Source: a plasmid
DNA: 64,000 nucleotides
Reading direction: 5' to 3' (one strand)
Sequence record: NZ_CP145916.1
Of the stretch, positions 885 to 41,331 are shown piece after piece. The stretch's first letter is position 1; every line of letters starts with the position of its first letter. The notes under the pieces are model-generated. The model searched no databases and was not told where the DNA came from. It was given only the letters and a program-made list of their open reading frames with translations. The translations under genes and the position numbers were made by a program.

Positions 885-1290
885 CTGTCAATGAAAAGTG
901 TGTGTCAGGGGGGTTAACAGTCATTGCAAAGGTGTGTGTCAGGGGGGAATGCCACTGGCAAGGTGTGCGTCAGGGGGAAAATTGGTGGTTTTCCCTCCGA
1001 GTGAGTATCACGGGGCGTAATTATCACCGGTAAAGTGTGTGTCAGGGGGAAGGAATTGGCTTTCGTTCGGTGTGTGCCAAGGGGTTTGACGGGAATTCCT
1101 GATAAATCCCCCTCCTAATTTGCTTCTTTTTTAAACATTTCTGTGCGCTGTGCATTACCCGGATCGTGAATGGTGTGTGTCAGGGGGGTTTTTCGTCCTG
1201 CTCGTCGGACTTGCCTCAAATATTGTTGTTTAGTAAAGTCTATATAAATCAATGACTAACTAAATTTGCGGTGTGTGCTGGGGGGAAGAT
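885..1290. repeat. Iteron array: seven or more degenerate ~19-bp direct repeats (A/G)GTGTGTGTCAGGGGG
   Basis: Copies start near 897, 931, 962, 1033, 1070 (variant), 1173 and 1269. The first three are spaced ~32-34 bp. They lie directly 3' of repA. Confidence 0.8.
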
Positions 1291-1606
1291 TCGATTAAAT
1301 AATGCTCAAACAGAAAAAAAGAGGACAAAATCGGGGTATTTCCGACGAGTTTCCCCTCAGCGGACACCTTTTACGGGGAAAAATGAAGGATAAATCCTCT
1401 TCTACTGTTCCGTGGGAGTAATGAATGACATACCTTCCCCTCAGCAGACACCTTTTGATCCGCAATCCACCAGCAAAAGATAGCCCCGAAAAAAAATAGG
1501 CAATCCCATATTATTCATGAATTTAGCTTAGAACACTCGGCAAAGGCGTTCGGTATGACATGTCTGTGTGGGAAAATAGACACAAAACGGTAAAGGAGTA
1601 AAGAAA

Positions 1607-2092
1607 ATGGGCGAAAATAAATTCGAAGAAGCCATTAAGTTTTATGGGGATAATCAGCGTGACGCAAGCAAATGTACTGCCCTCAGTGTGCAGTACACTA
1701 AAAAAGAAAAAACCAGTGAACTGACCGTGAATGTTGAGATGGCAAAAATAATCGACAGCTCGGCAGACTGGGCAAACAAAATCTATCTCCAGCTCTCGAA
1801 GGATGAACTGACCGGGCTATGCGAGTTGCTTTTTGGCCTGCAAAAAACGCTTGATGTGAGCTATCACGGTACGAAAAAAAACAAGGGTCTGAAAGTCCAC
1901 AATAACGATGCTAAAGGCGTTATGCTGATCATCTCCGAAGGGGGAACGACTATTCAGCACATGCTTAGTCATAATCAGCGAATTGAGTTAGGCGTTTTTA
2001 TTATCCGACGTCAGGCAGCTGCATGGCAGATATCAGTCAGTGATGTGCTGGCCGTGTTGCGTCAGTCCGTAGCTATCAGCCGGATCAGTTAG
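1607..2092 (+). CDS. hypothetical protein
   Basis: 161-aa ORF with a plausible SD (aaggag) 8 bp upstream. No recognisable motif. Confidence 0.4.
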   Translation: MGENKFEEAIKFYGDNQRDASKCTALSVQYTKKEKTSELTVNVEMAKIIDSSADWANKIYLQLSKDELTGLCELLFGLQKTLDVSYHGTKKNKGLKVHNNDAKGVMLIISEGGTTIQHMLSHNQRIELGVFIIRRQAAAWQISVSDVLAVLRQSVAISRIS

Positions 2093-2301
2093 GTGGGGTA
2101 TCTTACCAGCGCCGTTCTCCGGCTCGGTCAACCTCTCAACAGGCACAAAGCAAGTTTGTCCCTGTCTCAACGTTATCATTCTTATCGAATTGAGCCGGTA
2201 TGTGCAGGTGCCGGAAACTTGGGCTGATTGCTCTCTGTTTTCATTTGGAATGTATCGAAATGAAAATGTGTGATCGGTCAACAAACAGCCGGGACAGGTT
2301 A

Positions 2302-2940
2302 TCAGCTCATAATCATTGCGATGTTAACTGTGTCTTTATCTTTATTCACTTTCAGCACCAGCCGCTCTTTGGTTGGGGTAAAAATCAGTCGGTCATAGTC
2401 GGGTTTAATTTCATCCGGCTCCCGCACCATCTCGTACAAGCCATCTACCTTCACGACTCGACCGTTGCCTACGACCGCAAAAACCTTGTCGGTTAGCGTT
2501 TCAGGGGAAACGACTACCATTAATTTGTTGGCCTGCTTCTGCTGTTCGTCCGGCAGTTCTTTATAGGCAAAGAGAGGCTTATCGTAACCGATGGGTTTTA
2601 CTTCCATGAATGTCTCCGGGGTGAACCAGTTATGCCACTGCATTTTAGGGTGATGTTCATGGAACTCCACGCAGGCGATCCGCTGGGCAACGAGCGATTG
2701 AAAGATGCCGAGCAGCCCCGGAAAACGCTCAGTGCTCCATCCGTCATTAAGCAGTCTGGCCTCAATGCTTTCCCAGTCTTTCCCGGCAGCGTCCAGATTC
2801 ACGATGATGCTTTTGTTGATGCCCGAGTAGACGTACTCCGTGTTTTCGTTAAACGCGATGTCGAAGAATGCGTTCTGATCCAGTACGTGAGACATAGAAA
2901 CTTTGGCAGTGGCGTAAATATATTTTGCAGATAAGGACAT
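2302..2940 (-). CDS. hypothetical protein
   Basis: 212-aa ORF on the minus strand. Function unknown. Confidence 0.4.
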   Translation of the reverse strand: MSLSAKYIYATAKVSMSHVLDQNAFFDIAFNENTEYVYSGINKSIIVNLDAAGKDWESIEARLLNDGWSTERFPGLLGIFQSLVAQRIACVEFHEHHPKMQWHNWFTPETFMEVKPIGYDKPLFAYKELPDEQQKQANKLMVVVSPETLTDKVFAVVGNGRVVKVDGLYEMVREPDEIKPDYDRLIFTPTKERLVLKVNKDKDTVNIAMIMS

Positions 2941-3778
2941 GGTTTTAGCTCCGGTTTAATTGCATTAACGTGTCGTTCAGATAATGAAATTGTCTCATGG
3001 CGGAATAAGGGGTCGAATAGTGAGGCGGGAATCAATCTGTTATTTATTTCTCTCTCTTTGAATTGAAGATAACGGCGAGCAATCGGGTGCTAACTTTCTC
3101 GCACCGTTAATTCTTTGGTCAGTCTTATCCAGATTAAGTAAGTCCCTTTTGCTGAAAGAATGTGATGTTTAGAGAAGGGGGTTGGTTTTCTTGCCTTTCC
3201 CATTTACTGAAACATGTGGCGTAATTAATTTGAATGGAAGTGACGAGCAATAATAGCTTTGGTGCTTATCGCGGCATTAATCATTCGGGTAAAAACAGAG
3301 TCCTGACGTTGATATTTTTATATTAACAAACTGGTTTTAACTATCAGGTGACTGGATATATCCAGCCAGCGCGACGGAGATAATCAACGAGGCGGATTTA
3401 CGTTGGTGAAACCCCACCAGCAGGGGGCAGATTTGAGGGAAGAAGGGGAAAGGAGTTGGGGGTATTTCCGGCATAAACCTGATAAATTAAACCAACATGC
3501 AATAGAGGGGGGTAAGCCCCTACGCTTCGCTCCGGGGCAGGGAGCTGGACATCACCGCCGTGCCCTTTTGTGAGAAAAACCGCGTACTACTTTTCCCCCT
3601 GAGATCGGGCTTGAGAATGATTCGGTGACAATTCCCACATCCGGTGACGGGTATTTAAAACCCGGTTCGGCCCTGGTCTGAAATTAAGCTGTGGGTGTTT
3701 TATTAAAGAGAGAAAAGAGAGATAGAAAAAAGAACGCCGGGTTTGGCTCCGCACATTCTTCTTGGCGAGCGCCCCCAG

Positions 3779-3820
3779 AGATAAGAAGAGAAAATAAAGA
3801 GATAAGAAGAGAAAATAAAA
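3779..3820. repeat. Tandem direct repeat, 2 x ~21 bp (AGATAAGAAGAGAAAATAAA)
   Basis: Seen directly in the sequence, inside a ~1.1-kb non-coding stretch (3000-4080). Confidence 0.6.
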
Positions 3821-4084
3821 GAGGGTGCAGGGATGCGGAGTTTCAGCCATAAAAAAGGTAAAGGAAAAGACAGGTTTCTCAGCGCGTTAGTCTTTTATCG
3901 CTATATTGCATGTTGGTTTAATTTATCCATAAATGTCGCTGTGATAAAAATAAAAATGAACAATGAAAAGGGTAGGGGGAGAATGTCCCTTGCCGATAAA
4001 ACTGTTCCCGGTTTGTTATTTCTCTGCCCGCTGTTAAAAGTTGAAAGTTGATAACTTTGCAGTAAAATGCCGTTATCATATATA

Positions 4085-4100
4085 CTGTATAAATGTACAG
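4085..4100 (+). promoter_or_regulatory. LexA (SOS) box CTGTATAAATGTACAG for umuD
   Basis: Perfect CTGT-N8-ACAG motif 17 bp upstream of the umuD 5'-fragment ATG, followed by the SD aaggagag. Confidence 0.75.
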
Positions 4101-4116
4101 CTAAGGAGAGGCATTA

Positions 4117-4209
4117 ATGTCACTAAAACCTATGAAATCAGCCCCTGACACCAAAGAAACTATCCCTTTCTTTGGCGAGCTCGTACCCGCAGGTTTCCCT
4201 AGCCCAGCG
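4117..4209 (+). pseudogene. umuD: umuD/mucA-like 5' fragment (N-terminal ~31 codons), interrupted by element insertion
   Basis: Encodes MSLKPMKSAPDTKETIPFFGELVPAGFPSPA, matching the MucA/UmuD N-terminus (…IPFY…ISAGFPSPA) including the Ala-Gly cleavage site. The reading frame then runs into foreign sequence and stops at 4245. Confidence 0.75.
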
Positions 4210-4675
4210 CTTTTCCCATATTGCTCTTTTTTGTCAATGTTCTGAAATCTATTAATAAATAACGAAAAAATAATAAGATAGTAAGATAAATCTCGTTCAT
4301 ACCTACTTTTACGGCGTTGACAACTATCACTCGGTCGAGTTTTTTCACTGATCCCCGCTGGGATCCCCTAATTGGTTGCCTTAGCGCTCATCCGAGCAAA
4401 GTTGAGTTAGGCTAGTTAACTAAATAATATAAATGGCCTTGTCCGACTCAGGCGAGACGGAACAACTTCGGTGGCCTCGATAAGCGCTGGCCCACTCCGA
4501 ACCGTGAGAGTTTTTAAACAAACTGGTAAAGCAGACGCAATTCTCTTTCACTCGAAGCTGCTTTAAACCGCAGGTCGCGACCCATAACAGACGCTAATTC
4601 TTTAATCGATATTCGTTTTGATGTATCATCGCGAGCAGGAAACACCTTTCTTTATATCTAGGAAAAAACTATCGT

Positions 4676-5539
4676 ATGTACTCCAAATTTGTTGTTTTTG
4701 TATCGCTGTTAAGCAGCTTAACCCTCAGCATTCCTGCCAACTCTTCTCCAGACCTGATAGTCAACAGCATCAAAGAGGTAGAGCAAAACCTGGGTGCTAA
4801 AGTAGGAGTCTCAATCTACAGCGTTTCTGATGGTTACCTTTGGCATTACAACGGCGATTCACGTTTTCCGTTGATGAGCACCTTTAAAACTCTTGCATGT
4901 GCGAAATTGCTCCACGATGTTGAAACGGCGAAGCTGTCGATTGATCGATCTGTGAAGATTGAGGAACAAGACCTTATTACTTGGTCGCCGATAACAGAAA
5001 AGCTTGTTGGAGAGAGCTTTTCCCTCAAGCAGGCTTGCACGGCTGCAATGGTTATGAGTGACAACACAGCGGCTAATATAGTACTGGACGGTATTAGTGG
5101 CCCATCTGAATTGACCTTGTTCATGAAAGAACTCGGTGATGAAGTAACGCGACTGGATCGTATAGAGCCTCATTTAAATGAAGCGCGAAGCGGGGATGAG
5201 CGTGATACAACAACACCTAACGCGATTGTAAAAAGCCTCGGGAAACTGCTTTATGGCGAGAAACTCTCAAGTGGCTCTAAAGAACAATTAATTGAATGGA
5301 TGGCTGGCAACAAGGTGTCCGATAGCTTGTTGCGTTCAGTGCTACCAGAGGGGTGGTCAATTGCTGATAGGTCGGGTGCTGGTGGTTTTGGGTCTAGGGG
5401 AATCACCGCTGCGATTTGGTCAAATGAACAGCAGCCATTAATTGTTGCGATATATCTCACCCAGACTGAAGCTTCGTTTGACGAGAGAAATAAAGCTATT
5501 GCCAAAATAGGTAGAGAAATTTTCGCTTCTTATAACTAA
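4676..5539 (+). CDS. blaCARB-like: Class A beta-lactamase, CARB/PSE (carbenicillinase) family, divergent
   Basis: Has STFK, SDN, RLDRIEPxLNE and RDTTTP motifs, and RSG in place of KTG (LLRSVLPEGWSIADRSGAGGFG), as in PSE-1/CARB-2. Roughly half the residues differ from CARB-2 as recalled from memory. Signal peptide present. Confidence 0.85.
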   Translation: MYSKFVVFVSLLSSLTLSIPANSSPDLIVNSIKEVEQNLGAKVGVSIYSVSDGYLWHYNGDSRFPLMSTFKTLACAKLLHDVETAKLSIDRSVKIEEQDLITWSPITEKLVGESFSLKQACTAAMVMSDNTAANIVLDGISGPSELTLFMKELGDEVTRLDRIEPHLNEARSGDERDTTTPNAIVKSLGKLLYGEKLSSGSKEQLIEWMAGNKVSDSLLRSVLPEGWSIADRSGAGGFGSRGITAAIWSNEQQPLIVAIYLTQTEASFDERNKAIAKIGREIFASYN

Positions 5540-5859
5540 GGCAACTTGGCGGGTACTAAGCACCTCAGCATCATAAGATGAGAGGTGTTCTTTCAATCTT
5601 CCTTTATAGCGGCAGCTAAATCGCAGCTAAAGACATCGATCAGGCCGCTCCGTATGTCCGCATTGTGCCGACTCCGGTATATGCGCAGGAAAATCATCTA
5701 ACGTCCGGTTCCGGAAATTTCAGTTGGCTCTGTTAAAGCAACAGTGAGCGTATGCCCTCTCCCCCTTTAACGCTGCTCCTCAGAGACGGCTATACGGTAG
5801 TTATCTGCGGCCGTAGTTGAGCAGTGTGGTCATTTAGCAGTATCTCGCGCTATAAAAAA

Positions 5860-5875
5860 CTGTATGTATATACAG
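5860..5875 (+). promoter_or_regulatory. LexA (SOS) box CTGTATGTATATACAG within a 36-bp palindrome
   Basis: Perfect CTGT-N8-ACAG motif at 5860-5875. It is embedded in the palindrome CTATAAAAAACTGTAT-GTAT-ATACAGTTTTTTATAG (5850-5885), 50 bp upstream of the 5925 ORF. Confidence 0.75.
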
Positions 5876-5924
5876 TTTTTTATAGTAGGCTTATCTTGTA
5901 GAGCAAGGTGAGTGAGATCTCTTT

Positions 5925-8285
5925 ATGAGTCGGGTTTCCCCAAAAAGTTTTCCCCAAGGTATCATTACGAAAGGCCACACAGATAAGAATTTCCAGTTTC
6001 TGGTTCTGTCCGGTAATGTTTTGCTTCTAATTCAATCTCACCTTGCTAATTTACCGCCGTCCCAGCGGCGGAGCGCTAATAGGGCTGTGTTCTACTTCGA
6101 ATGTTTCCTGTGGCTAATCAACCATCCACCTATCACAAGCACTCTAGACCTTCGAACAAATGCTTTTCTGAGCATTCAGCGCCTTTTCTATGGCGCGCTT
6201 TACTCAAACTGTTTTCTGGCTGCTGAAGTAAAATACTCAGGCAGACAGAGACTTGTCCGGTATTTCTTTAAACTCCTCGCTGAGCTGTCTAAATCGTCTC
6301 CTATCAATATTTTTGTATATTCAGACCTTACAGATAGCCAGGTCCGAGAATGCATCGCTCAGTTTGAAGCTATTGGGATTGACCCTGTACGAGCAGCCAA
6401 GCTCATGGGGTGGCAAGTCGCAGACAGAAGCGCGAACTCATTTCGATTAAAGATGGGAGCCATCTTCGATGTTTTTGGGCCTGATTTTACGATGGAATTA
6501 CACCAGGAGAGTAAGAAGCACGCCTTGGCTCATAGTCATTATAGTAACTACGCTAATGTGGTCTCTCGATTTGATGATTTTCTGCGCTGGTATGACGATG
6601 ATCCGATAGACAGACCTTCCTTAAACGCTCACGTGCTCCAAGATCCAGTCTTTGTATATCAGCTTTTCTGGAGCTTTCAGCGCTGGCATTTCGAAGGGTA
6701 CTCCGAGCGGAGCCAAACCCAACCGACGGAACGGGTGTTGGCAAACCTTCAGCGCCAATGGATCAGAATCATCTGTTGGGCAAAGTCTGTTCTGGTTAGC
6801 GGAGGGCTTATGTGTTCCCCGCTTGGCGATGTGTGGCCCGAAGGGAGCAAAAAGCTCACTCGATTCCTCCATGAAGTAGGCCACCATCGATACGCTGATG
6901 GTGAATCCCTTGTATCACAAAAGCTTTTGACCCAGATCCCACTGTCTGTCACAGATAAGGAGGCAACGGAGCTTCTATTCAGACAGATCGAAGACGACTT
7001 CAATAAAGTCGTTCGGTGGGCTCGACGGGAGATTGATCACATAGCTCATCGTTTGAACGTTATTGATCAGGCCTGCGATCAAGGGGATCTGATAACGCTA
7101 GGTTCTCGAATATCTGCTCGGGCTTATGGCCAGCCTGTGATGGGGATGAACAGCCTTATCAGAACTGTAAAAGAAACCCACAACGGATTTGCAATCATCG
7201 ACCACGCTATGCGCGGCCACTTGGTAAGCGCAACAGGGAGTTCTTTTTCAACATCGGAGTTAGCGGCGAATCTGGCTATGCCGACGAAGTATGCGATTGC
7301 TCCCATCGCTCTCTGGCTAGTAGCGCAGCATCCCGTTCTGACCGAGGCATCTCTATTGAAATGCGAGTTATTCGACCGAAACGGTAAGCGAACCGGCTTT
7401 GTTAAGACCGACTCTGGATCTGTGCTTGTTGTGAAGAAAAACCGGAAAGGGAAGCAACAGGAGGTTGTACTGAGCGACGACGCAGCTTCGGTGGTCGAGC
7501 TGCTTATCCAGATCACGGCCCCGGTTAGGCGCTATCTCAAGGAGAAAAGGGATGATGCCTGGCGACGATTGTTCATCGTCGCGGGTGGTCAGGGCTTTCA
7601 GGAACCTTACACTTTCACAAACCAGACCAGCTTCGCCAAGATCCTCCGGCAGAAAGCCTTTATACAAGCTCATAGCGCCGAGTTAGGAGACATGGTCTCC
7701 GTATTGTCGCTGGCCCGGATAAGGGCTACCGCAGGTGTTCTCGTCTACCTCAAGTCGTTAAGCATAGAGAAAATGGCAGAGTCACTAGGCAACTCGAAAC
7801 GAGTCGCCATGAACCATTATCTGCCGCCTACCATCATGCAGTTTTTCCAAGAGCGGTGGGTCAGGATTTTCCAAAACGCGGTGATTGTCCACGCTATGAA
7901 GGACTCTCCTTATCTGCTTGATGCAACGGACTTTAGCAGCATGAGTGAGTTGGATATGTTTCTAGAGGCGCATGCCCTTCGAACGCCGCCTGAAGAACCC
8001 GAACAGCTGAGTAGTTCCTCTGAGCAAATATCTGGTTCGTCAGATCCAGAGATCGTTATTTCTATCGATGAAGGCGTTCTTGGTGTGCTCCTCTCGCTAA
8101 AAATGGCCGTTGAGCAAGCTGGCCCACGTGCGGCGGGAACGGCTGTGTACTGGAGCCAGTTCGCAGCGAAGATAGAGGCTCACATTGAATCTGATGGTTA
8201 TCTAGATCCATATATCCGCGGTTGTCTAGTTAAGGCTAAGGGGATAGCGAATCCTCAACAGTTTGAGGGTCTAGTCTATGGATGA
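5925..8285 (+). CDS. Large tyrosine-recombinase-fold protein, possibly catalytically degenerate
   Basis: The C-terminal region (LSLARIRATAGVLVYLKS…LGNSKRVAMNHYLPP) resembles the R…(H)xxR…Y box of phage integrases, but the conserved His is absent. First gene of an overlapping four-gene operon. Confidence 0.5.
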   Translation: MSRVSPKSFPQGIITKGHTDKNFQFLVLSGNVLLLIQSHLANLPPSQRRSANRAVFYFECFLWLINHPPITSTLDLRTNAFLSIQRLFYGALYSNCFLAAEVKYSGRQRLVRYFFKLLAELSKSSPINIFVYSDLTDSQVRECIAQFEAIGIDPVRAAKLMGWQVADRSANSFRLKMGAIFDVFGPDFTMELHQESKKHALAHSHYSNYANVVSRFDDFLRWYDDDPIDRPSLNAHVLQDPVFVYQLFWSFQRWHFEGYSERSQTQPTERVLANLQRQWIRIICWAKSVLVSGGLMCSPLGDVWPEGSKKLTRFLHEVGHHRYADGESLVSQKLLTQIPLSVTDKEATELLFRQIEDDFNKVVRWARREIDHIAHRLNVIDQACDQGDLITLGSRISARAYGQPVMGMNSLIRTVKETHNGFAIIDHAMRGHLVSATGSSFSTSELAANLAMPTKYAIAPIALWLVAQHPVLTEASLLKCELFDRNGKRTGFVKTDSGSVLVVKKNRKGKQQEVVLSDDAASVVELLIQITAPVRRYLKEKRDDAWRRLFIVAGGQGFQEPYTFTNQTSFAKILRQKAFIQAHSAELGDMVSVLSLARIRATAGVLVYLKSLSIEKMAESLGNSKRVAMNHYLPPTIMQFFQERWVRIFQNAVIVHAMKDSPYLLDATDFSSMSELDMFLEAHALRTPPEEPEQLSSSSEQISGSSDPEIVISIDEGVLGVLLSLKMAVEQAGPRAAGTAVYWSQFAAKIEAHIESDGYLDPYIRGCLVKAKGIANPQQFEGLVYG

Positions 8286-10401
8286 TAGCAGCGCGCTACC
8301 TCGCGAATTGGACTTCATAACGCGATCAGTCGATGCGGATCTAGGACTATTCCGAAGCGCTGAATGGCTCAATTCGAAGTTCGATGACCCAGTATGGAGC
8401 GCTCGTTTTGCCGAAAATGGCAAGAGAGACACTGTTATTGATTTCAGGGTTAGGCTCGATGATGGGCTACTGCTCACCCACCCAAGACATCACAACCTTT
8501 TGGAAAGCATAAAGGCATATTTATGTCTGTCGTCCCATCCGTTGGCCACCGGAGGCAGCCAGCTTGCCCCGAAGACGGTACAGCAAAGGGTTCGTACGAC
8601 CTTAGGTATCATCGACTACTTTCTCCTGAGAGCCGAGCATTTCCAACTGGCATCCCATCAGTTCAAGCTAATTACGCCGCATGACATAACTGAGTTCATG
8701 GCTGTGTTGGCTACTGATCAGTACGCTAAGAACAATCTCTACGCTGCGCGTGAAGAGCTACAGCGTTTCCTTCGCCTCAACAGCCATCAGGTTACGAAGC
8801 TGGAGACACAGTACGTTCTATCAAAGGTTCCTGGAATCGCTATTGTTGATGATGTAGATGAGAGCAACCTTGGCTTATCAGAGTCGGAGATTGTTGCGGC
8901 TAGGATTTTTCTGTGGATCAACGGAAACTACAAACGCATACCGATTAAGGCGGGTAGTCATGGGCATTCATTTTTTAGTCATCAAGTTTCTCCAAACAGT
9001 ATCTACTCTGAAATTTATCATGAGCGAACTTTAGTGACGCCTAAATTCCGGGGGCTGGTGCTGGACGAGCTCCACTTTAGCCCATCCGAGAAGACCTTTA
9101 GAGAGTATCCCATGGTTTCGTCCATGGTTCTGTATGATGATCCACTTCCCTCTGAGGCTGGGGTTGATTTCTACCGACAATCGCTTAAACGGATGGAACT
9201 CCTTAAGCTCTGTGGGCTGGACCATATCAACCATCTTTCGCTAACAGCCTTGGATAATAGAGCTTTCCTCGGGCAACTTAAGATGAAGGGCACCGGGCGT
9301 TACCGGTCGCTGCCTCGGGACGTCGTATTTTCATCGTTTCGGAACGCAGTGGAGTTCTACTTAGATTTGGGTCAGGTCCTTATCGATGGTTATCTGGCCT
9401 TGGCGCGAGAGGCTGATGCACGTGGATGTGCCATCGGGGATTTGACCCAATCTGAAACGATAGAGCTGATCCCAAAGAGGTTGCGAGACATCGGAGTAAG
9501 TATCTGGGATCTCTCGGCAGATTTTCGCGGGCAGAACCGTGGAGGCGGTAGCGCTCTGTTTTTTAAGCGGTTCAGAGAGAATGAGGGACTGCTCCAGCTA
9601 ATTGAGGTACTTTATGGTGCCATCTGGATAATACTCGCTGCGCTTAGTGCCAGACGTTCTGGAGAGCTTAGGGATCTTAAGGCAGATACCTGCCTTGTTA
9701 AGAAGTCCCATGGCTATTATTTACAGTTTGACTTGCGGAAACGGAACTTCGGCAAGACTCGTGAACAGGTCCTTCGTCCCATTCCCAATGTCGCGGCCCG
9801 GTGCATTCTGAGCTTGGGTGATCTTCGTCAGAAGCTCTCCTTGCTTAGTTCAGTTACGATTTCAGATAGGCTGTTCAGCAAGCCTCATTATCGCGAAGTT
9901 GGCCTGTCTGCGATGGGTTCAGTAGACGCGGCCAAGGTGCTAAACCGCTTTTCTGACTATTTCGAAGTCCAACAGGACGCTACTGGGCATCGTTATTACA
10001 TTCGTACCCATCAACTTAGACGCTTCTTCGCTATGACATTCTTCTGGGCCGGCGGATTTGGCGGCCTAGACACACTTCGGTGGTTTTTGGGTCATACGAA
10101 TGTCGAGCATGTTTATCACTACATCACAGAGACCGTTCCAGGAGAGGTGTTGCGAAGAATCGGTGCCGAATACGCATCTGATGCACTTCTCATAGGGCAG
10201 AGCAACACAGAAGATCTGGGTAATCTCCTACGTGAGCGTTACGGATTGTCATCATTTTCCATCATGCAGTCGGATGAAGTCGCAGACTATATCGAAGACC
10301 TAATGATGGAAGGGTTGCTAAAGATAGAGCCAGTCTTCTTCGACACACCGACAGGAAAGCGCCATGAGATCCTCTTTAAAATCACCGGAGAAAATTCATG
10401 A
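8278..10401 (+). CDS. Tyrosine recombinase (phage-integrase family), 707 aa
   Basis: Box I ARRSGELRDL, HxxR in RTHQLRRFFAMTF, and the nucleophile Tyr in LGHTNVEHVYHYIT. The start overlaps the upstream stop. Confidence 0.75.
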   Translation: MDDSSALPRELDFITRSVDADLGLFRSAEWLNSKFDDPVWSARFAENGKRDTVIDFRVRLDDGLLLTHPRHHNLLESIKAYLCLSSHPLATGGSQLAPKTVQQRVRTTLGIIDYFLLRAEHFQLASHQFKLITPHDITEFMAVLATDQYAKNNLYAAREELQRFLRLNSHQVTKLETQYVLSKVPGIAIVDDVDESNLGLSESEIVAARIFLWINGNYKRIPIKAGSHGHSFFSHQVSPNSIYSEIYHERTLVTPKFRGLVLDELHFSPSEKTFREYPMVSSMVLYDDPLPSEAGVDFYRQSLKRMELLKLCGLDHINHLSLTALDNRAFLGQLKMKGTGRYRSLPRDVVFSSFRNAVEFYLDLGQVLIDGYLALAREADARGCAIGDLTQSETIELIPKRLRDIGVSIWDLSADFRGQNRGGGSALFFKRFRENEGLLQLIEVLYGAIWIILAALSARRSGELRDLKADTCLVKKSHGYYLQFDLRKRNFGKTREQVLRPIPNVAARCILSLGDLRQKLSLLSSVTISDRLFSKPHYREVGLSAMGSVDAAKVLNRFSDYFEVQQDATGHRYYIRTHQLRRFFAMTFFWAGGFGGLDTLRWFLGHTNVEHVYHYITETVPGEVLRRIGAEYASDALLIGQSNTEDLGNLLRERYGLSSFSIMQSDEVADYIEDLMMEGLLKIEPVFFDTPTGKRHEILFKITGENS

Positions 10402-10976
10402 AGAAAGCATCACGGCAGGTGTCTGCTCAGCTTGAGATTAGCAACAGATCTGTTCTTTCTCGCGTTGAGTATCTCGAATCGATTATTCACTCACCCGCCG
10501 AGCATCAAGAAAACATAACACTTTTGATCGCTTTGAAGAGCCAAAGTGGACTTGCAAAGCTGGCGGTTAGCGAAGCTTTTATTTCTCCTATGTCTCTCAA
10601 TACGCTTAAGAACAGAGCGAATGACATACTCCCTGGTGGGTTTACGACTATTGATCACCTGAGACGCCAGGCCGCAAAAGCTATTCACGATTCAACCGTA
10701 GTCAAGCCTTCATCGTCCTCTATAACCAAGCAGGACCTCAAAGATAAGATTAAGGCTCAGGAAAGGACCATCTCTCAGTTGTGGGATGAAATCGCACTGG
10801 TTACGAATGTTTTTAGAGAATCAGTAACACTCGCCCAACAGTTTGCCGAGAAATGCCCAGACCCGGCAGATCTGATCCTTTTCAAAAAGCGCCGTAGAGA
10901 GCTGCTTTTAATGTTCTCATTAAGCAAGCGGCCTCAGACGCCTTTACATGAGAGCCCGTCCAATGCCGAAGGATGA
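10398..10976 (+). CDS. Small accessory protein of the recombinase operon
   Basis: 192-aa ORF whose start and stop overlap the flanking recombinase genes (ATGA). Hydrophilic and probably helical. Confidence 0.5.
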   Translation: MKKASRQVSAQLEISNRSVLSRVEYLESIIHSPAEHQENITLLIALKSQSGLAKLAVSEAFISPMSLNTLKNRANDILPGGFTTIDHLRRQAAKAIHDSTVVKPSSSSITKQDLKDKIKAQERTISQLWDEIALVTNVFRESVTLAQQFAEKCPDPADLILFKKRRRELLLMFSLSKRPQTPLHESPSNAEG

Positions 10977-12369
10977 GAAACTCTATAATCTAACGAGCGA
11001 TGTTTTCCGATTACCTTACGGGGTTGATCGAAATAGCCACGTCCTCAGCGTCAGAGCTGATAACATTCCGCTTCTCTGTTGGCCCGATGGCAGGCCGTGC
11101 ACCGAGGCGAACCTATATATGCTGCACTGTTTTGAGCGTGGACTTTCCCGTAAGGAAGGCGGTGGGACACTTACTCAATATGCCAAGCTTCTTTCACACC
11201 TTATTCGCTTTTGCTTTAACAACAACTACTCATTCATAGGGTTGACTGATTCTCGCTTTTCACTATTCATCAGAACGCTCCAAGGAGAAATGGATCCACG
11301 AAAACCAGAGCAGAGAAAACGGAGAGCAGCCCATGTGGCAAACATAGGGAGAACCTGCCTCGGCTTTTTAGGATTCGTTGGAGAACTCTATCTAGAACCG
11401 TCGTTCGTCGGCGCCGCAGGAACGATCAGGGCTGAGACGAAGGAGTTCAAGCTGGCTGGTCAGAGAAAGCAGATAGTCCATACCTATTGGCATCACCATT
11501 CCTTTCCTAACCCCGAGCCTCCAACACGGCGCTTACCTATCAATTCTACAAATATCGCAAAACTGATCGAAGTGATTCCGGATGTGAGCACGACGACCTA
11601 TCAGAGAAGACGGCGTTTCATTCTGGTCAAGCTTTTGGAGATTACTGGGGCAAGGCGAGTTGAGATCGCGAACATCAGAGTCGAAGACATCTATAACGCG
11701 AGGAAGATGAAGCAAGAGCCTGTTCTCAAGGTCTTCACCGCCAAGCGCTCGGGAGGAAGGGAAGAGTACAGATACTTGCCGGTTTCCAAAATGGACCTTG
11801 AATTGATCGTAAATTTCATCGAAAAGTTCCGACACCGGATCATTAAGAAGACCATCGGTAGCGCTAGTGACTTGGGCTATCTGCTGATTTCGGAAAGTAG
11901 TGGACTAAGGCTCGCTACCGAGACGCTGACGAATGAACTACTGCTGCTTGCCAAGGCTGCCAAGATCGAAGAGCAAGCCTGCGCACACATGTTCCGGCAT
12001 AGATTCATTACCAAGCTTTTTGTGGCTTTGATTGAGCAACATGAATTCGAAAATGGGGACGATTTTCGGCGTGCTCTCCTGGATGGTGAGACCCTCAAGA
12101 GAAAGGTTCAAGAGTACACGGGGCATACTTCGATCAGTAGTCTTGAACCGTATATTCACTTGGCTTTCGAGGAAGTGGCGAGGTTTGGAAGTACCTTAGA
12201 CCTGATTAAAGCAAAGCTTGCCGTTGAATCGCTACGGTCCAATCTCAAGGACATTGCTATCGAACTCAGACACGGCAGGAGTCCTACTGAATTGAGCGCC
12301 CTCCTCCGCGACTATATCGACTTGGCGCTGGAGGAACTCAGTAGCGCCTCAATTTCTACAGAGAGCTGA
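10948..12369 (+). CDS. Tyrosine recombinase (phage-integrase family), 473 aa
   Basis: Box I GARRVEIANIRVEDI, HxxR in HMFRHRFIT, and the nucleophile Tyr in GHTSISSLEPYIHLA. Confidence 0.75.
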   Translation: MRARPMPKDEKLYNLTSDVFRLPYGVDRNSHVLSVRADNIPLLCWPDGRPCTEANLYMLHCFERGLSRKEGGGTLTQYAKLLSHLIRFCFNNNYSFIGLTDSRFSLFIRTLQGEMDPRKPEQRKRRAAHVANIGRTCLGFLGFVGELYLEPSFVGAAGTIRAETKEFKLAGQRKQIVHTYWHHHSFPNPEPPTRRLPINSTNIAKLIEVIPDVSTTTYQRRRRFILVKLLEITGARRVEIANIRVEDIYNARKMKQEPVLKVFTAKRSGGREEYRYLPVSKMDLELIVNFIEKFRHRIIKKTIGSASDLGYLLISESSGLRLATETLTNELLLLAKAAKIEEQACAHMFRHRFITKLFVALIEQHEFENGDDFRRALLDGETLKRKVQEYTGHTSISSLEPYIHLAFEEVARFGSTLDLIKAKLAVESLRSNLKDIAIELRHGRSPTELSALLRDYIDLALEELSSASISTES

Positions 12370-12375
12370 CAAGAT

Positions 12376-12753
12376 ATGGGCAGAATGAGTTCATATGGGA
12401 ATCCTGCTGCTGGGTGGGAAGAGGCTGAACTTAATCTTCATACGCTGGTGGTTACTCATCCAGCCAGCACGTACTTCTTGCGCGTGACAGGTGACTCCAT
12501 GCAGGATGCTCGGATACATTCTGGTGACGTGCTGGTGGTTGATCGCTCAGAAACTCCAGAGCAGGGTAGTATTGTTGTTGCCAGCATCGACAACGAATTT
12601 ACAGTCAAGAAACTCATCTTGCGGCCACGTTCATGCCTTATGCCGATGAACCCGGCATACCCACCTATCTATTTTGACCCTGAAAGTAACGACGTTGAAA
12701 TTTGGGGTGTGGTGACTTACTCATTAATGAAGCACAAAAAATGTATGGCCTGA
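12376..12753 (+). CDS. umuD: UmuD/MucA-like 3' portion, re-started by element-derived sequence (UmuD'-like truncated product)
   Basis: …HPASTYFLRVTGDSMQDARIHSGDVLVVDRS…EFTVKKL… (S24 peptidase Ser-Lys dyad). It lacks the N-terminus, which lies at 4117-4209. The new Met sits 6 nt after the recombinase stop. Confidence 0.8.
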   Translation: MGRMSSYGNPAAGWEEAELNLHTLVVTHPASTYFLRVTGDSMQDARIHSGDVLVVDRSETPEQGSIVVASIDNEFTVKKLILRPRSCLMPMNPAYPPIYFDPESNDVEIWGVVTYSLMKHKKCMA

Positions 12754-14006
12754 TCGACATTAATTCCTGCTACTGTGCCTGCGAGCAAGCATTCAGGCCC
12801 GATCTTGCTGGTAAACCCGTAGTAGTTTTGTCAAACAATGATGCCAGCTGCATAGCCCGTAACAAGCAGGCGAAAGCCCTTGGTATAAAAATGGGCGAGC
12901 CATTCTTTAAAATCAAAGATCTCATAGAACGGAACAATGTCGCTGTTTTCAGTTCAAACTATGCCCTTTATTCCGCATTTAGTTCCCGGTTTGCATCTGT
13001 TATAGAGTCACTGACTCCGCGTAGCTCAGTGTATTCAATCGATGAACTTTGGTTTGATGCCACGAATATCACTGGTTTAATGACTCTTGATGCCTATGGC
13101 CGCATGTTGCGAGAAGAGGTACAGCGTCAGACAACGCTTACTTGTGGTGTTGGGATAGCACCGACAAAAACACTCGCGAAATTGTGTTCTCATGCTTCAA
13201 AAACCTATCCGGCAACTGGCGGAGTTGTCGCGCTTGATGATGTTACCCGTTTAGAAAAGCTGATGCGGCTTGTGCCCGTTGAAGACGTGTGGGGTGTTGG
13301 CCCACGGCTGGGTAAAAGGCTTCGGTTTATGGGAGTGGAAACCGCGTTTCAACTATCCTGCCTTGATCCTGTTCGGGTACGAAAGCAGTTCAATGTTGTC
13401 CTTGAGCGTACCGTCAGGGAACTCCGGGGGGAGCCTTGCATGGCGCTTGACGAAAATGATGTGATGAAACAGCAAATAGTCGTTTCCCGCTCCTTCGGTG
13501 AGCGAGTCACCAACCTTCATGAAATGCAGCAAGCCATAACCGATTATGCGGCTCGCGCTGCCGAAAAACTCCGGCAAGAAAAAGGGTATGTCTCTGTAAT
13601 TGGTGTTTTTATACGCACCAGCCCCTACGCAGTAAATGATGTACCTTATTCCAATCAGGCTACTGAAATGCTGGTGACTCCCTCCAACGACAGCAGGGAT
13701 ATTATTAATGCTGCACAACGCGCATTAAAACGGATCTGGAGGCCAGAAGTCCGTTATGCTAAAGCAGGTGTGATGCTTTGTGATATTCGCGAGCGTGAGC
13801 CTCAACTTGATTTGTTCACTGAATCGGCCCAGTACCGCAACAGTGAAAATCTCATGCAATTACTGGATACTCTCAACAAGCAGGGTAGACACAATTTGTT
13901 TTTTGCCGGACAAGGTATAAACCCCGTTTTCGCAATGAAGAGAAATATGCTATCCCCTGCATATTTGACTAGCTGGGATGATTTACCAAAGGTTAGGTTA
14001 GGATAA
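12741..14006 (+). CDS. umuC: Y-family DNA polymerase V catalytic subunit UmuC/MucB-like
   Basis: MYGLIDINSCYCACEQ… start typical of UmuC. Overlaps the umuD stop. ~420 aa. Confidence 0.85.
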   Translation: MYGLIDINSCYCACEQAFRPDLAGKPVVVLSNNDASCIARNKQAKALGIKMGEPFFKIKDLIERNNVAVFSSNYALYSAFSSRFASVIESLTPRSSVYSIDELWFDATNITGLMTLDAYGRMLREEVQRQTTLTCGVGIAPTKTLAKLCSHASKTYPATGGVVALDDVTRLEKLMRLVPVEDVWGVGPRLGKRLRFMGVETAFQLSCLDPVRVRKQFNVVLERTVRELRGEPCMALDENDVMKQQIVVSRSFGERVTNLHEMQQAITDYAARAAEKLRQEKGYVSVIGVFIRTSPYAVNDVPYSNQATEMLVTPSNDSRDIINAAQRALKRIWRPEVRYAKAGVMLCDIREREPQLDLFTESAQYRNSENLMQLLDTLNKQGRHNLFFAGQGINPVFAMKRNMLSPAYLTSWDDLPKVRLG

Positions 14007-14247: not shown

Positions 14248-14263
14248 CTGTATAAACTGACAG
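14248..14263 (+). promoter_or_regulatory. LexA box CTGTATAAACTGACAG
   Basis: CTGT-N8-ACAG motif 12 bp upstream of the tus-like ATG. Confidence 0.6.
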
Positions 14264-14274
14264 GGGTATCCGCT

Positions 14275-15159
14275 ATGGATTTAAAAAAAACATTTGAACA
14301 GCTTACGGACGATTTACTCGCCCTGAAAATGCTGATCAGCGGTAGCTCGCCTCTGTTTTCCCAAGTCTCCGACATTCCGCCCGTCCTGCGGGGGGATGAG
14401 CATTTACCCATTTCGTATGTTGCCCCTGATCACCTGTACGGCCATGAGGCCATTCAGAAGGCGGTTGATATCTGGAGTGACCTGCACATCAAGCATGATT
14501 TTTCCCAGAAGTCTGCACGTCGTGCATCCGGTGTTCTGTGGTTTCCATCAGAAGATAATGCGTTTACGGTCGAGCTCGTTCGCCTGCTGAGCCAAATCAA
14601 TGCCCTGAAAAAGAGTATTGAGACTCACATCATTACGACCTACCAGACACGTAGCGCACGATTTGAAGCCCTGCATAATCAATGTGCCGGGGTGCTGACT
14701 TTACATCTTTACCGTCAGATCCGCTGGTGGAAGGATGAGCATATATCAGCCGTGAGATTTAGCTGGCAAGAAAAGGAGTCTTTGCTCATTCCTGACAAAG
14801 CTGAGTTACTCGTGCGTATGAGCAAGGAAGGTAGGGAGGATGGGAAAAAAGAGGTGCCGCTTGCGTTGCTGATGAAGCAGATCGTTTCCGTACCGGAAGA
14901 ACGACTGCGTATAAGGCGTCGTCTCAAGGTTCAGCCATCGGCTAACATTTCGTTCCGTAGCGAGCAACACCCGACTGGGAAGCTGACAATGGTCACGGCT
15001 CCGATGCCCTTCATTATTATTCAGAATGAACGGCCAGAGGTGAAAATGCTCAAAATCTATGATGCGAATGAGCGAATCAGCCGTAAGCGACGTAACGACA
15101 AAGTGCATACGGAAATCCTCGGTACGTTTCATGGCGAAAGTATCGAAGTGATTGCCTGA
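14275..15159 (+). CDS. tus: Tus-like replication terminus-binding protein
   Basis: Colinear similarity to E. coli Tus (EDEH(N/L)P; VLTLHLYR ~ LITLNAYR; RLKVQPSA ~ PVKVQPIA; APMPFIIIQNE ~ PTPLIALINRD). Confidence 0.65.
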   Translation: MDLKKTFEQLTDDLLALKMLISGSSPLFSQVSDIPPVLRGDEHLPISYVAPDHLYGHEAIQKAVDIWSDLHIKHDFSQKSARRASGVLWFPSEDNAFTVELVRLLSQINALKKSIETHIITTYQTRSARFEALHNQCAGVLTLHLYRQIRWWKDEHISAVRFSWQEKESLLIPDKAELLVRMSKEGREDGKKEVPLALLMKQIVSVPEERLRIRRRLKVQPSANISFRSEQHPTGKLTMVTAPMPFIIIQNERPEVKMLKIYDANERISRKRRNDKVHTEILGTFHGESIEVIA

Positions 15160-15195: not shown

Positions 15196-15211
15196 CTGTA
15201 TATGTATACAG
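15196..15211 (+). promoter_or_regulatory. LexA box TACTGTATATGTATACAGTA (perfect palindrome)
   Basis: Consensus SOS box 19 bp upstream of the dinI-like gene. Confidence 0.75.
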
Positions 15212-15229: not shown

Positions 15230-15463
15230 ATGTTACGTATAAATGTGTGTTTCGATGCCAGCAAGAAAGTGCCTGCTAAAATCCAGCAGGCATTACGAGC
15301 TGAGATAGAGAAAGAGATCTTGTCTAATTACGAACGTGGTGTGGTAAGTGTGGGGAAGGGAAGCAGCGCAGAAGTGTCGATCAGTGGCGTTGATGATGAT
15401 GAAAAAAAAGTAATAATGCAGAAGCTTGAAGACATCTGGCAAAGTGACAGCTGGTTGCCTTGA
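15230..15463 (+). CDS. dinI: DinI-like SOS protein
   Basis: 77 aa. Aligns with DinI (…VSV…KEDKQ…EILQETWES.DDWF ~ VVSVGKGS…DDDEKKVIMQKLEDIWQSDSWLP). Preceded by a LexA box. Confidence 0.65.
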   Translation: MLRINVCFDASKKVPAKIQQALRAEIEKEILSNYERGVVSVGKGSSAEVSISGVDDDEKKVIMQKLEDIWQSDSWLP

Positions 15464-33958: not shown

Positions 33959-34972
33959 CTACCTCTCACTAGTGAGGGGCGGCAGCGCATCAAGCGGTGA
34001 GCGCACTCCGGCACCGCCAACTTTCAGCACATGCGTGTAAATCATCGTCGTAGAGACGTCGGAATGGCCGAGCAGATCCTGCACGGTTCGAATGTCGTAA
34101 CCGCTGCGGAGCAAGGCCGTCGCGAACGAGTGGCGGAGGGTGTGCGGTGTGGCGGGCTTCGTGATGCCTGCTTGTTCTACGGCACGTTTGAAGGCGCGCT
34201 GAAAGGTCTGGTCATACATGTGATGGCGACGCACGACACCGCTCCGTGGATCGGTCGAATGCGTGTGCTGCGCAAAAACCCAGAACCACGGCCAGGAATG
34301 CCCGGCGCGCGGATACTTCCGCTCAAGGGCGTCGGGAAGCGCAACGCCGCTGCGGCCCTCGGCCTGGTCCTTCAGCCACCATGCCCGTGCACGCGACAGC
34401 TGCTCGCGCAGGCTGGGTGCCAAGCTCTCGGGTAACATCAAGGCCCGATCCTTGGAGCCCTTGCCCTCCCGCACGATGATCGTGCCGTGATCGAAATCCA
34501 GATCCTTGACCCGCAGTTGCAAACCCTCACTGATCCGCATGCCCGTTCCATACAGAAGCTGGGCGAACAAACGATGCTCGCCTTCCAGAAAACCGAGGAT
34601 GCGAACCACTTCATCCGGGGTCAGCACCACCGGCAAGCGCCGCGACGGCCGAGGTCTTCCGATCTCCTGAAGCCAGGGCAGATCCGTGCACAGCACCTTG
34701 CCGTAGAAGAACAGCAAGGCCGCCAATGCCTGACGATGCGTGGAGACCGAAACCTTGCGCTCGTTCGCCAGCCAGGACAGAAATGCCTCGACTTCGCTGC
34801 TGCCCAAGGTTGCCGGGTGACGCACACCGTGGAAACGGATGAAGGCACGAACCCAGTTGACATAAGCCTGTTCGGTTCGTAAACTGTAATGCAAGTAGCG
34901 TATGCGCTCACGCAACTGGTCCAGAACCTTGACCGAACGCAGCGGTGGTAACGGCGCAGTGGCGGTTTTCAT
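33959..34972 (-). CDS. intI1: Class 1 integron integrase
   Basis: 337-aa IntI1 sequence ([44 protein letters not shown]…). Confidence 0.97.
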
Positions 34973-35117
34973 GGCTTGTTATGACTGTTTTTTTGTACAG
35001 TCTATGCCTCGGGCATCCAAGCAGCAAGCGCGTTACGCCGTGGGTCGATGTTTGATGTTATGGAGCAGCAACGATGTTACGCAGCAGGGCAGTCGCCCTA
35101 AAACAAAGTTAGGCCGC

Positions 35118-39385: not shown

Positions 39386-39789
39386 CATTCACCTTCCGGC
39401 CGCCCGCTAAATATCTCCTTTTGGGTTGTTAATAAAACATCCAATAAGTTGACTGTGCGTGAAAAAGAAAGTTTTGTGTGATGGCGTTGAAGATCGCACC
39501 GTTAAGCTCTTATGTGGGATGGTGCAGAGCTCGACGACTACCGATAAAACGCAACCGCCGCAAACAGACAAGAAAAAGCCCCAACTGATAACAGTTGGGG
39601 CTTCAGTATTGTGATTGGTGGAGCAATAGCACCCTGAACCCAAAACCTTCTCGCTCAACCGGTAGTGGCTGATAACAACTCGTGAGGGCTATTGCGGGTT
39701 AAGCATTTAGCGATGTCTAGGGCCAGACTGGACGTCTGAACGCAAGCCGCTGATACTGTACATAACCACAGTATCAGCGGAGGATACCC

Positions 39790-41331
39790 ATGTCGCTGGC
39801 AAGGAACGCCACGGCGAGTCAATCGCCCACTCAAACAAACGGTTACGAACGCCACCAACCCGACCAGACGCTGCTCTACCAGCTGGTTGAGCAGCACTAC
39901 CCAGCCTTCAAAGCCTCACTCGAAGCCCAAGGTCAACACCTGCCTCGCTACATCCAACAAGAATTCAACGACCTCCTCCAATGTGGCCGTCTGGAGTATG
40001 GTTTCATGCGGGTTCGCTGCGAGGATTGTCATCACGAGCGTCTGGTCGCCTTCAGCTGTAAACGACGCGGCTTTTGCCCTAGCTGCGGTGCCCGCCGGAT
40101 GGCCGAGAGTGCGGCGCTGCTGATAGACGAAGTCTTCCCCAAGGAGCCCATTCGCCAGTGGGTGCTCAGCTTTCCTTTCCAGCTACGCTTTTTGCTGGCT
40201 CGCCATCCCCAGCTGATGGGCCAGGTCTTGAGTATCGTCTATCGTACACTCTCAACTCATCTGATCAAAAAAGCCGGTTACACCAAAGCCTCTGCACAAA
40301 CTGGCTCAGTGACTCTTATCCAACGCTTTGGCTCCGCGCTAAATCTCAATGTCCACTACCACATGCTGTTTCTCGATGGTGTCTATGCCGAAGATGACTA
40401 TGGCAAGCAACGCTTCCATCGTGTCAAGGCACCCACTTACGATGAGCTGAATACGCTCGCTCACACCCTCAGCCATCGCATCGCTCGCTGCATGGAAAAG
40501 CGTGGGATTTTGGAGCGTGATGCCGAGAATACGTGGTTGACACTGGAAGAGGGCGAAGACGATACGCTGACTCAATTACATGGTGCTTCGGTTACGTATC
40601 GCATTGCCGTCGGCCCCCAGCAAGGGCGCAAAGTCTTCACCCTGCAAACCTTGCCAGGGCGTGAGGATAAAGCCGACTCAAGCAGTCGAGTAGCCAACCA
40701 TGCTGGTTTCTCGCTACACGCCGGTGTGATGGCCGAAGCGCATCAGCGGGATAAGCTTGAGCGCTTGTGTCGCTACATTAGTCGGCCAGCGGTTTCAGAA
40801 AAACGTCTGGCATTAACCGCCAATGGGCAGGTGCGTTACGAGCTCAAAACTCCGTACCGCAATGGCACCACCCATGTGATCTTCGAGCCGCTGGACTTCA
40901 TCGCCAAACTCGCTGCGTTGGTACCTAAGCCGCGAGTCAACCTCACACGCTTCCACGGCGTCTTTGCACCGAACAGCAAACACCGAGTTCAAGTAACACC
41001 CGCCAAGCGGGGCAAGAAGCCCGACAAATCGGAAGGTCTCGATACTAACTGGCGTGACAAGAGTCCTGCAGAGCGCCACCGCGCCATGACCTGGATGCAA
41101 CGCCTCAAGCGGGTCTTCAATATTGATATTGAAGTCTGCGAACACTGCGGCGGTCACGTCAAAGTGATTGCCAGCATCGAAGATCCGAAGGTCATTGAGC
41201 AGATTCTCAAGCATCTGAAACAGAAAACAGCCAAGGCGAATGCCGCCAAGCAGCGTGAGCTGCCACCAGAACGAGCGCCGCCACTGACTCCCAGCCTGTT
41301 CGATCCATCACAGAGTCGTCTCTTTGACTGA
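39790..41331 (+). CDS. ISCR1 rolling-circle transposase (Orf513, IS91 family)
   Basis: 513 aa. Zn-finger CEDCHHERLVAFSCKRRGFCPSCGARRM and HUH-type motifs. Lies directly downstream of sul1, as in complex class 1 integrons. Confidence 0.93.
   Translation: MSLARNATASQSPTQTNGYERHQPDQTLLYQLVEQHYPAFKASLEAQGQHLPRYIQQEFNDLLQCGRLEYGFMRVRCEDCHHERLVAFSCKRRGFCPSCGARRMAESAALLIDEVFPKEPIRQWVLSFPFQLRFLLARHPQLMGQVLSIVYRTLSTHLIKKAGYTKASAQTGSVTLIQRFGSALNLNVHYHMLFLDGVYAEDDYGKQRFHRVKAPTYDELNTLAHTLSHRIARCMEKRGILERDAENTWLTLEEGEDDTLTQLHGASVTYRIAVGPQQGRKVFTLQTLPGREDKADSSSRVANHAGFSLHAGVMAEAHQRDKLERLCRYISRPAVSEKRLALTANGQVRYELKTPYRNGTTHVIFEPLDFIAKLAALVPKPRVNLTRFHGVFAPNSKHRVQVTPAKRGKKPDKSEGLDTNWRDKSPAERHRAMTWMQRLKRVFNIDIEVCEHCGGHVKVIASIEDPKVIEQILKHLKQKTAKANAAKQRELPPERAPPLTPSLFDPSQSRLFD

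Follow-up and report, generated by a model that had tools for sequence, protein, structure and literature searches.

The 64,000-nt stretch of plasmid record NZ_CP145916.1 analysed here (the window) carries an integrative element of ~8.2 kb, composed of bla HMS-1, a gene for a beta-lactamase, and a module of four open reading frames (ORF1 to ORF4), that is inserted precisely in the umuD gene of an Rts1-like plasmid. The element restarts the interrupted umuD in frame from its own right end, and carries a canonical LexA box inside an inverted repeat upstream of ORF1. This box is probably an operator with dual control, by which the element would govern the captured genes of DNA polymerase V (Pol V) and, in this lineage, the recombination genes. 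A previous sequence-only reading had proposed that the box places the mobility of the element under SOS control; the umuD context, in which the target is itself LexA-controlled from a native operator at 4085, had been missed there.

Both flanks of the insert match the Rts1 locus (L002) contiguously, with window 1204-4211 corresponding to L002 1-3009 and window 12403-13728 to L002 3001-4326 at 100% identity; thus an intact Rts1 umuD has been split by the ~8.2-kb insert (4206-12402), and the empty site is broken at 4205/12403. The region upstream of the native umuD is identical to that of Rts1 and represents plasmid backbone, outside the element. The same element was found in three further umuD or rumA genes: (i) in pPROV073-3, where window 4194-12408 is 99.9% identical and interrupts another umuD sequence between the same codons; (ii) in the chromosome of Thalassolituus marinus (L013); and (iii) in the SXT/R391 element R997 (L001), from which ISCR2 removed everything right of 5925. 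R997 is the source of the beta-lactamase name HMS-1, to which the identity of the gene refers (PMC5561048, PMC5124997), and window 4189-5925 is 99.7% identical to its bla HMS-1 region. In R997, the end of ISCR2 (ISVsa3) abuts the ORF1 ATG exactly at its first base (L001 4427/4428, window 5925); this copy thus keeps bla and the LexA palindrome and has lost the whole recombination module.

The left end begins with AGCGCTTTTCCCATATTG after the umuD codons G-F-P-S-P, and AGCGCTTTTCCCATATTG was found 3′ of four different umuD or rumA sequences (window, L003, L001 and L013). At the right end, 12 loci from various hosts share a near-invariant CTGACAAGATATGGGCAGAATGAGTTCATATGGGAAT(C/T)C, after which the umuD codons P-A-x-D-Y come in every case, while the terminal arms ATATGGGAA and TTCCCATAT are inverted repeats of each other. 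Beside the left arm, (C)AGCGC is present in four different targets and equals the native umuD bases of Thalassolituus-type genes, and the right junction retains each target's own bases, in a small sample of 4 attL and 3 attR junctions. The joint of attL and attR is predicted to be CATATGGGAATCC-AGCGC-TTTTCCCATAT. The insertion point is in the codons for GFPSP/A of genes of the umuD family, directly past the site at which UmuD cleaves itself. Relatives from at least eight genera target umuD.

Activation of UmuD to UmuD′ proceeds by cleavage at Cys24-Gly25, which RecA stimulates. The right end of the element provides ATGGGCAGAATGAGT... in frame with the rest of umuD, and the restart product M(GRM)SSYGN-PAAGWEE... 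substitutes for residues 1-29 of Rts1 UmuD, aligning from P30, four residues past the Gly of the Ala-Gly cleavage site; the GDSM and FTVKK motifs of the Ser-Lys dyad are retained. Because the start lies just past the cleavage site and the dyad motifs are kept, the element-started 'umuD product is UmuD′-like by its N-terminus and its dyad and, we infer, would be so in its activity. The restarted ORF is intact in 8 of the 10 assessable loci. Decaying copies were also seen: on an E. coli chromosome (L008 17047-17085) the restarted umuD has a nonsense codon after AADYV, and in Cedecea (L009) the module and 'umuD are both fragmented.

ORF1, ORF2, ORF3, ORF4, 'umuD and umuC are co-directional. From the ORF4 stop to the in-frame ATG there are 6 nt, the umuC start overlaps the 'umuD end, and a terminator scan from ORF1 to umuC returned no terminator-like site except two weak intragenic matches, none convincing. 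The overlaps between the starts and stops of the four genes, on which the sequence-only reading had based a four-gene operon, are as it described (Table 1); the tight packing stands, yet the unit continues past 12369 into 'umuD and then umuC. The box thus heads six genes rather than four, which are presumably co-transcribed.

The inverted repeat reads CTATAAAAAACTGTAT-GTAT-ATACAGTTTTTTATAG, its arms (5850-5865 and 5870-5885) being 16 nt each and 100% complementary across a 4-nt gap. It had been described as a 36-bp perfect palindrome around an SOS box; the box and the perfect 16-nt arms are there, whereas the GTAT centre is non-palindromic, leaving 34 of the 36 positions self-complementary. 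The box core, CTGTATGTATATACAG, occupies 5860-5875 within the 20-mer AACTGTATGTATATACAGTT (5858-5877), and is separated from the ORF1 ATG at 5925 by 49 nt (position −65), in keeping with the ~50 bp claimed before. Its CTGT-N8-ACAG core, AT-rich spacer and low heterology index are those of a gammaproteobacterial LexA box. On an approximate heterology index built in house from ~20 E. coli LexA operators, AACTGTATGTATATACAGTT scores 1.6-2.9, better than every other 20-mer of the 64 kb, the native umuD operator (5.2) included. The window contains six copies of the motif CTGT-N8-ACAG, where shuffling predicts 0.73, and none of 100 shuffles reached six, which argues that the box at 5860 is not a chance occurrence; other boxes sit at expected SOS genes, namely the native umuD, dinI and intI1. 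A −10-like TATAAA (5852-5857) abuts the box, and TAAAAT or GATAAT occupies the same place in L017 and L014; a promoter at this position is putative. As part of dual control, the palindrome likely contains a high-affinity LexA operator of the core module, to which LexA is predicted to bind. The near-consensus box directly upstream of a coupled recombination module that adjoins a beta-lactamase gene is therefore as the sequence-only reading had it.

Homologues of ORF1 that are 57-87% identical were found in Marinobacter, Serratia, E. coli, Cedecea, Raoultella, Hafnia, Vreelandella, Pseudomonas profundi and metagenomes, and their contigs all carry the same four-gene module (~786, 707, 192 and 470 aa); those in Marinobacter, Serratia, E. 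coli, Cedecea, Hafnia, Raoultella and Pseudomonas profundi adjoin umuD. A distant version of the module, with 27-35% identity, is present on a Pseudomonas megaplasmid (L004). The scan of genome contigs returned 5 loci, so that family-wide statistics are thin. Comparison with the boxes of related elements, which the sequence-only reading had suggested, revealed a canonical box in the same alignment columns in L014, L017, L018 and L019 (ORF1 79-87% identical): CTGTATAAACGTACAG at −140 in L014 and L018, CTGTATAGGCGTACAG at −140 in L019 and CTGTATACATGTACAG at −137 in L017, with a half-box in L006 that is cut by an insertion of the IS1595 family. Since the CTGT/ACAG arms are invariant among the boxed relatives while the spacer, like the upstream flank, varies at an orthologous position, a functional operator is indicated.

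In the window's nearest clade, the conserved core module begins, on its 5′ side, with the box. The bla gene occurs without the box in small Providencia plasmids, where the match stops at ~5627-5631, and homology to L017 begins at 5710; the box thus belongs to the core module and not to the bla cargo. A distant blastn search for the palindrome in other plasmid contexts returned the same element only. L014, L017, L018, L019 and L006 share a conserved leader of ~77 nt between box and ORF1 (~60-135 nt upstream of ORF1), which contains a hairpin-forming inverted repeat, AAGGGTGAG...CTCACCCTT. This leader is precisely absent from the window lineage, apparently by deletion between GGTGAGTG-like repeats, and its loss accounts for the position of the window box at −65. 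That the box is a displaced native umuD operator was considered and rejected: the native operator, of different sequence, is still in place outside the element, 1.8 kb upstream of the 5860 box, and the latter lies inside the insert and travels with it into four different targets.

A sister clade (L007, L008, L009, L011 and L016; ORF1 66-75% identical) arranges its box differently. No CTG-N10-CAG was found there within 320 nt upstream of ORF1; a conserved TACTGTAyAyAAAyACAGTT is instead positioned ~126 nt inside the right end, facing 'umuD, within a conserved segment of ~230 nt downstream of ORF4 and of any cargo, which in this clade is located between ORF4 and the right end. In L011 there is no leftward gene available for the right-end box to regulate. 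The unit that exits the element consists of 'umuD-umuC only in the sister clade and of ORF1-ORF2-ORF3-ORF4-'umuD-umuC in the HMS-1 clade; in both clades the element-borne box thus heads whichever unit exits into 'umuD-umuC. The position of the box before recombination genes, noted by the sequence-only reading, is hence upheld by its orthology in four relatives but does not extend to the sister clade, and SOS control of recombination genes was rejected as a trait of the family. Because the sister-clade box faces only 'umuD, the recurrent selected function would most simply be SOS control of the captured Pol V. After this right-end box, a leader ORF of ~27 codons was observed (L007 21628-21711 and homologous positions in L008, L009, L011 and L016), which ends in ATGA, overlapping the 'umuD start codon, and suggests translational coupling.

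Table 1. Features of the element, its umuD target and the box in the window.
Feature	Coordinates	Strand	Evidence
Whole integrative element, ~8.2 kb	4206..12402	+	Rts1 empty site split exactly here; 2-bp CC common to both junctions
Promoter of the native umuD (TTGAAA-16-TAAAAT, 4041-4068) with its LexA operator TACTGTATAAATGTACAGCT (core 4085-4100)	4041..4103	+	Promoter scan, box search
umuD 5′ fragment, first ~29 codons MSLKPMKSAPDTKETIPFFGELVPAGFPSP, ATG 4117	4117..4205	+	Match to Rts1 L002, translation
Left end: AGCGC carried spacer, then terminal inverted-repeat arm TTTTCCCATAT	4206..4226	.	Junction comparison
Class A beta-lactamase bla HMS-1, cargo	4676..5539	+	Pfam and NCBIfam matches
Inverted repeat with LexA box	5850..5885	.	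Repeat search, box search, orthologous boxes in L014, L017, L018, L019
ORF1, 786 aa, large uncharacterised family	5925..8285	+	ORF list; no recombinase signature detected
ORF2, 707 aa, large tyrosine recombinase (ARRSGELR ... HQLRR ... GHT ... YHY)	8278..10401	+	Motifs, PHROG
ORF3, 192 aa, small, no domain detected	10398..10976	+	Pfam, NCBIfam, PHROG
ORF4, 473 aa, tyrosine recombinase (PF00589)	10948..12369	+	Pfam, NCBIfam, PHROG
Conserved right end CTGACAAGATATGGGCAGAATGAGTTCATATGGGAATCC: inverted-repeat arm ATATGGGAA and in-frame start codons	12366..12402	.	Comparison of 12 loci
'umuD, Peptidase_S24, start ATG 12376 or 12385 from element	12376..12753	+	Pfam/NCBIfam, translation
umuC, full-length Y-family polymerase, likely ATG near 12741	12702..14006	+	Pfam IMS, IMS_C, DUF4113

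The insertion cuts the 3′ part of umuD and umuC off their own LexA-controlled promoter by 8.2 kb, and under dual control the element would compensate twice: its right-end in-frame ATG restarts umuD as a UmuD′-like protein, and its own LexA operator would head ORF1-ORF2-ORF3-ORF4-'umuD-umuC. If left uncontrolled, the captured Pol V genes would encode a form that needs no RecA-dependent activation. In an undamaged cell, LexA would hold the six-gene unit off; upon DNA damage, RecA-stimulated cleavage of LexA would induce the recombination proteins together with pre-activated Pol V, and the former may then excise or copy out the element plus its beta-lactamase gene, so that mobility would be SOS-inducible.

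Several observations weigh against such dual control. First, no box was found in L020 (74% identical), L012 (57%) or the Pseudomonas L004 (27%), and the box is thus dispensable for the recombination module. Second, in L006, L011 and L019 a further recombinase module disrupts the umuC beside the element, and 'umuD is broken in L008 and L009, so that Pol V is not always preserved. Third, the promoter scan returned no sigma-70 promoter with at least 9 of 12 matches overlapping the box; a weak TATACA-17-TATCTT and the −10-like TATAAA 5′ of the box were read by eye only, and it might instead be bla, or the promoter of the native umuD, from which the ORF1 unit is transcribed. Finally, the extended A6/T6 arms of the palindrome resemble a terminator hairpin and are restricted to the window lineage.

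The sequence-only reading had in effect taken the box to serve SOS-inducible mobility alone, which would make the link to umuD-umuC incidental. The box does lie directly upstream of ORF1, here at −65 and in four relatives at −137 to −140, and integron integrases are an established case of tyrosine-recombinase genes under LexA control (PMC3108266), with an intI1 gene and its box (34985) as an example within the window itself. This explanation is nevertheless unlikely, as the sister-clade box stands solely before 'umuD and none precedes its recombinase genes, the in-frame restart of umuD is conserved family-wide, and the operon enters 'umuD after 6 nt without a terminator.

Alternatively, the palindrome could act mainly as an intrinsic terminator of the bidirectional type, or as an insulator, for bla, with its likeness to a LexA box secondary or incidental. 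As RNA it would form a 16-bp hairpin of −20 kcal mol−1 (z = −5.3), with an inner CUGUAU/AUACAG stem that is preceded by A6 and followed by U6, and it is located downstream of bla on the same strand, where no promoter was called. Yet each arm of the stem has just two G-C pairs, the terminator scan did not call it, the palindrome lies 311 nt past the stop of bla, which elsewhere travels without it, and in relatives that lack bla as well as the extended arms and the U-tract a canonical LexA box is still found at this position; we therefore consider a mainly terminating role rather improbable. An Rfam search of 4000-6100 returned only a meaningless miRNA match (E = 0.7). It is possible that the repeat serves both as RNA terminator and as DNA operator, which would fit dual control; with constitutive transcripts from bla stopped at the repeat, control by LexA would have a point. 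That the box is a non-functional relic of a captured umuD-type promoter, or a chance AT-rich palindrome, is very improbable: L020, L012 and L004 do lack it and upstream promoter elements are unrecognisable, but it is the best-scoring site in the window, about 0.004 such sites per 320 nt are expected by chance (derived from the motif count), the CTGT/ACAG arms are perfect in five diverged lineages despite changed spacers and flanks, and its sequence differs from the native umuD operators beside each insertion.

Within the module, tyrosine-recombinase motifs are confined to ORF2 and ORF4. ORF2 has a PHROG integrase match (7.7e-5) and is labelled 'site-specific integrase' by PGAP, and ORF3 is kept in all relatives, being 35% identical to its counterpart in L004. 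ORF1, by comparison, belongs to a family of ~690 clusters at 50% identity and had been called recombinase-like, a description that found no backing: Pfam, NCBIfam and PHROG returned no recombinase match; hidden Markov model searches of the PDB with 16- and 100-sequence profiles, and hhalign against ORF2 and ORF4 profiles, were negative or uninformative; and the AlphaFold2 model was poor (predicted local distance difference test, 53.7), with no fold match by Foldseek. A tyrosine-recombinase fold for ORF1 is accordingly unsupported by sequence, profile and structure-model searches. The spacing R600...H623 (N here)...Y632 in the 100-sequence alignment recalls the R-H-Y spacing of XerD and is not taken as evidence. 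The supposed trio of tyrosine recombinases therefore comprises two catalytic recombinases, one large protein without a detected fold and one small protein; with two recombinases only and the small ORF3 interposed between them, the element was not placed among the recombinase-in-trio (RIT) elements.

How the element relates to known systems was examined case by case. LexA-controlled integron integrase genes (intI) were reportedly described in Guerin 2009 and Cambray 2011. In intI, likewise, a canonical CTGT-N8-ACAG stands just upstream of a tyrosine-recombinase gene on a resistance element and links recombination to damage of the DNA; there the box heads a cassette-shuffling gene, whereas here it heads a four-gene module predicted to move the whole element site-specifically, the unit continues into host Pol V genes, and presence and position of the box vary between clades. 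One textbook LexA-controlled recombinase of this type is found in the window, an intI1-like gene at 33959-34972 (minus strand) with the box CTGTTTTTTTGTACAG immediately upstream (34985-35000). Native umuDC and rumAB, by textbook knowledge, likewise have a LexA operator before umuD-umuC. In the window, however, operator and start codon come from a mobile element, four recombination genes are interposed, and the 'umuD product, unlike native UmuD, would need no RecA*-dependent cleavage.

GInt and integron-like elements insert in rulB, a umuC homologue, and SOS control of their integrase has been postulated (PMC4542609, PMC5385486), the GInt-type integrase being said to have no LexA site of its own and to depend on the host's promoter of rulAB (PMC4542609). 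Traits shared with GInt are the four genes, of which two encode catalytic tyrosine recombinases and the others a third large and a small protein, a site-specific target in an SOS mutagenesis operon, the carriage of cargo, and outward transcription into the target gene. The GInt operon, though, lies at the 5′ end and reads inward, while the present module lies at the 3′ end and reads outward; the target is umuD instead of rulB/umuC, the order is large-large-small-integrase, and the box is the element's own. As in this lineage the module adjoins the far end and has the bla cargo upstream of it, the element was not assigned to GInt.

Strand-biased circularizing integrative elements (SE; PMC10214605, PMC9345347) are similar in other respects: they occur in Gammaproteobacteria, encode two RHRY tyrosine recombinases plus two accessory proteins and have imperfect terminal inverted repeats; their cargo may be a small class A beta-lactamase, blaGMA-1, related to HMS-1 by NCBIfam; and at the recombinase-distal junction they bring along a 6-nt spacer of the site they occupied before, the recombinase-proximal one retaining the bases of the target, as here CAGCGC is carried to four targets. 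The footprint described for SE (PMC10214605), a carried 6-nt spacer with imperfect terminal repeats, is thus present, on few junctions. The order intA-tfp-intB-srap from the intA-proximal end is however permuted here and in opposite orientation: the genes run large-large-small-integrase and read towards the end. BLASTP of ORF1-4 against the SE/GInt-like module in L006 and L011 detected no similarity, including to the SE-like module of L006, and by gene order and sequence the element was not counted as an SE. The SE papers make no mention of umuD, LexA or SOS. By the tests run, the element is neither RIT nor SE nor GInt and seems to work most like the SE/GInt type. In the open-access literature, no description was found of the umuD target, of this module or family, or of its LexA box.

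Since the umuC beside a umuD-inserted element is itself interrupted in three hosts, umuDC represents a double landing pad. The second modules (L006 17097-22123, L011 17442-22364 and L019 9678-12844) are multi-recombinase and unrelated; that of L006 is SE/GInt-like, with ORFs of 379, 548, 617 and 136 aa, the last of which contains DUF6262. Defence cargo was observed in elements of the sister clade, as CBASS-like genes (SMODS, bacHORMA, AAA and Cap17-like) left of the module in L007 (1609-9050) and as a Gabija-like OLD/UvrD pair between ORF4 and the right end in L007 (16943-21059) and L009 (16640-20759).

Three more LexA boxes were located elsewhere in the window. The canonical box CTGTACATAACCACAG (39756-39771), which scores 5.1 on the approximate heterology index, precedes by 34 nt the gene at 39790-41331, which encodes a 513-aa IS91/Y2-type transposase, ISCR1-like orf513, and suggests that an ISCR1-like rolling-circle transposase may be LexA-controlled as well. 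In the backbone, one box (14248-14263) is found 27 nt upstream of a gene for a Tus/Ter-like replication-terminus protein (14275-15159), which has a TTGCTA-17-TAAAAT promoter-like site, and another (15196-15211) 34 nt upstream of a dinI-like gene (15230-15463). SOS control of a plasmid tus homologue, if true, would be unusual.

Both SOS-controlled recombinase modules and integrative elements that target the SOS mutagenesis operon are already known; new here is that an element gives the interrupted gene both a start codon and a predicted operator. It represents a site-specific element family defined by one short conserved peptide-coding motif of umuD, for which empty and filled sites are known, and recombinase modules of at least two unrelated kinds have umuDC as their landing pad. 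We tentatively suggest, as a possibility, that this is an undescribed family specialised on the codons past the UmuD cleavage site, which makes umuD pre-cleaved and brings its own LexA operator, and which may thereby rewire SOS mutagenesis, removing the RecA*-dependent checkpoint, and tie its own movement to the same signal. On the same tentative footing, the operator of the HMS-1 lineage might also control the recombination genes and, indirectly, the spread of the beta-lactamase. [quoted passage not shown]

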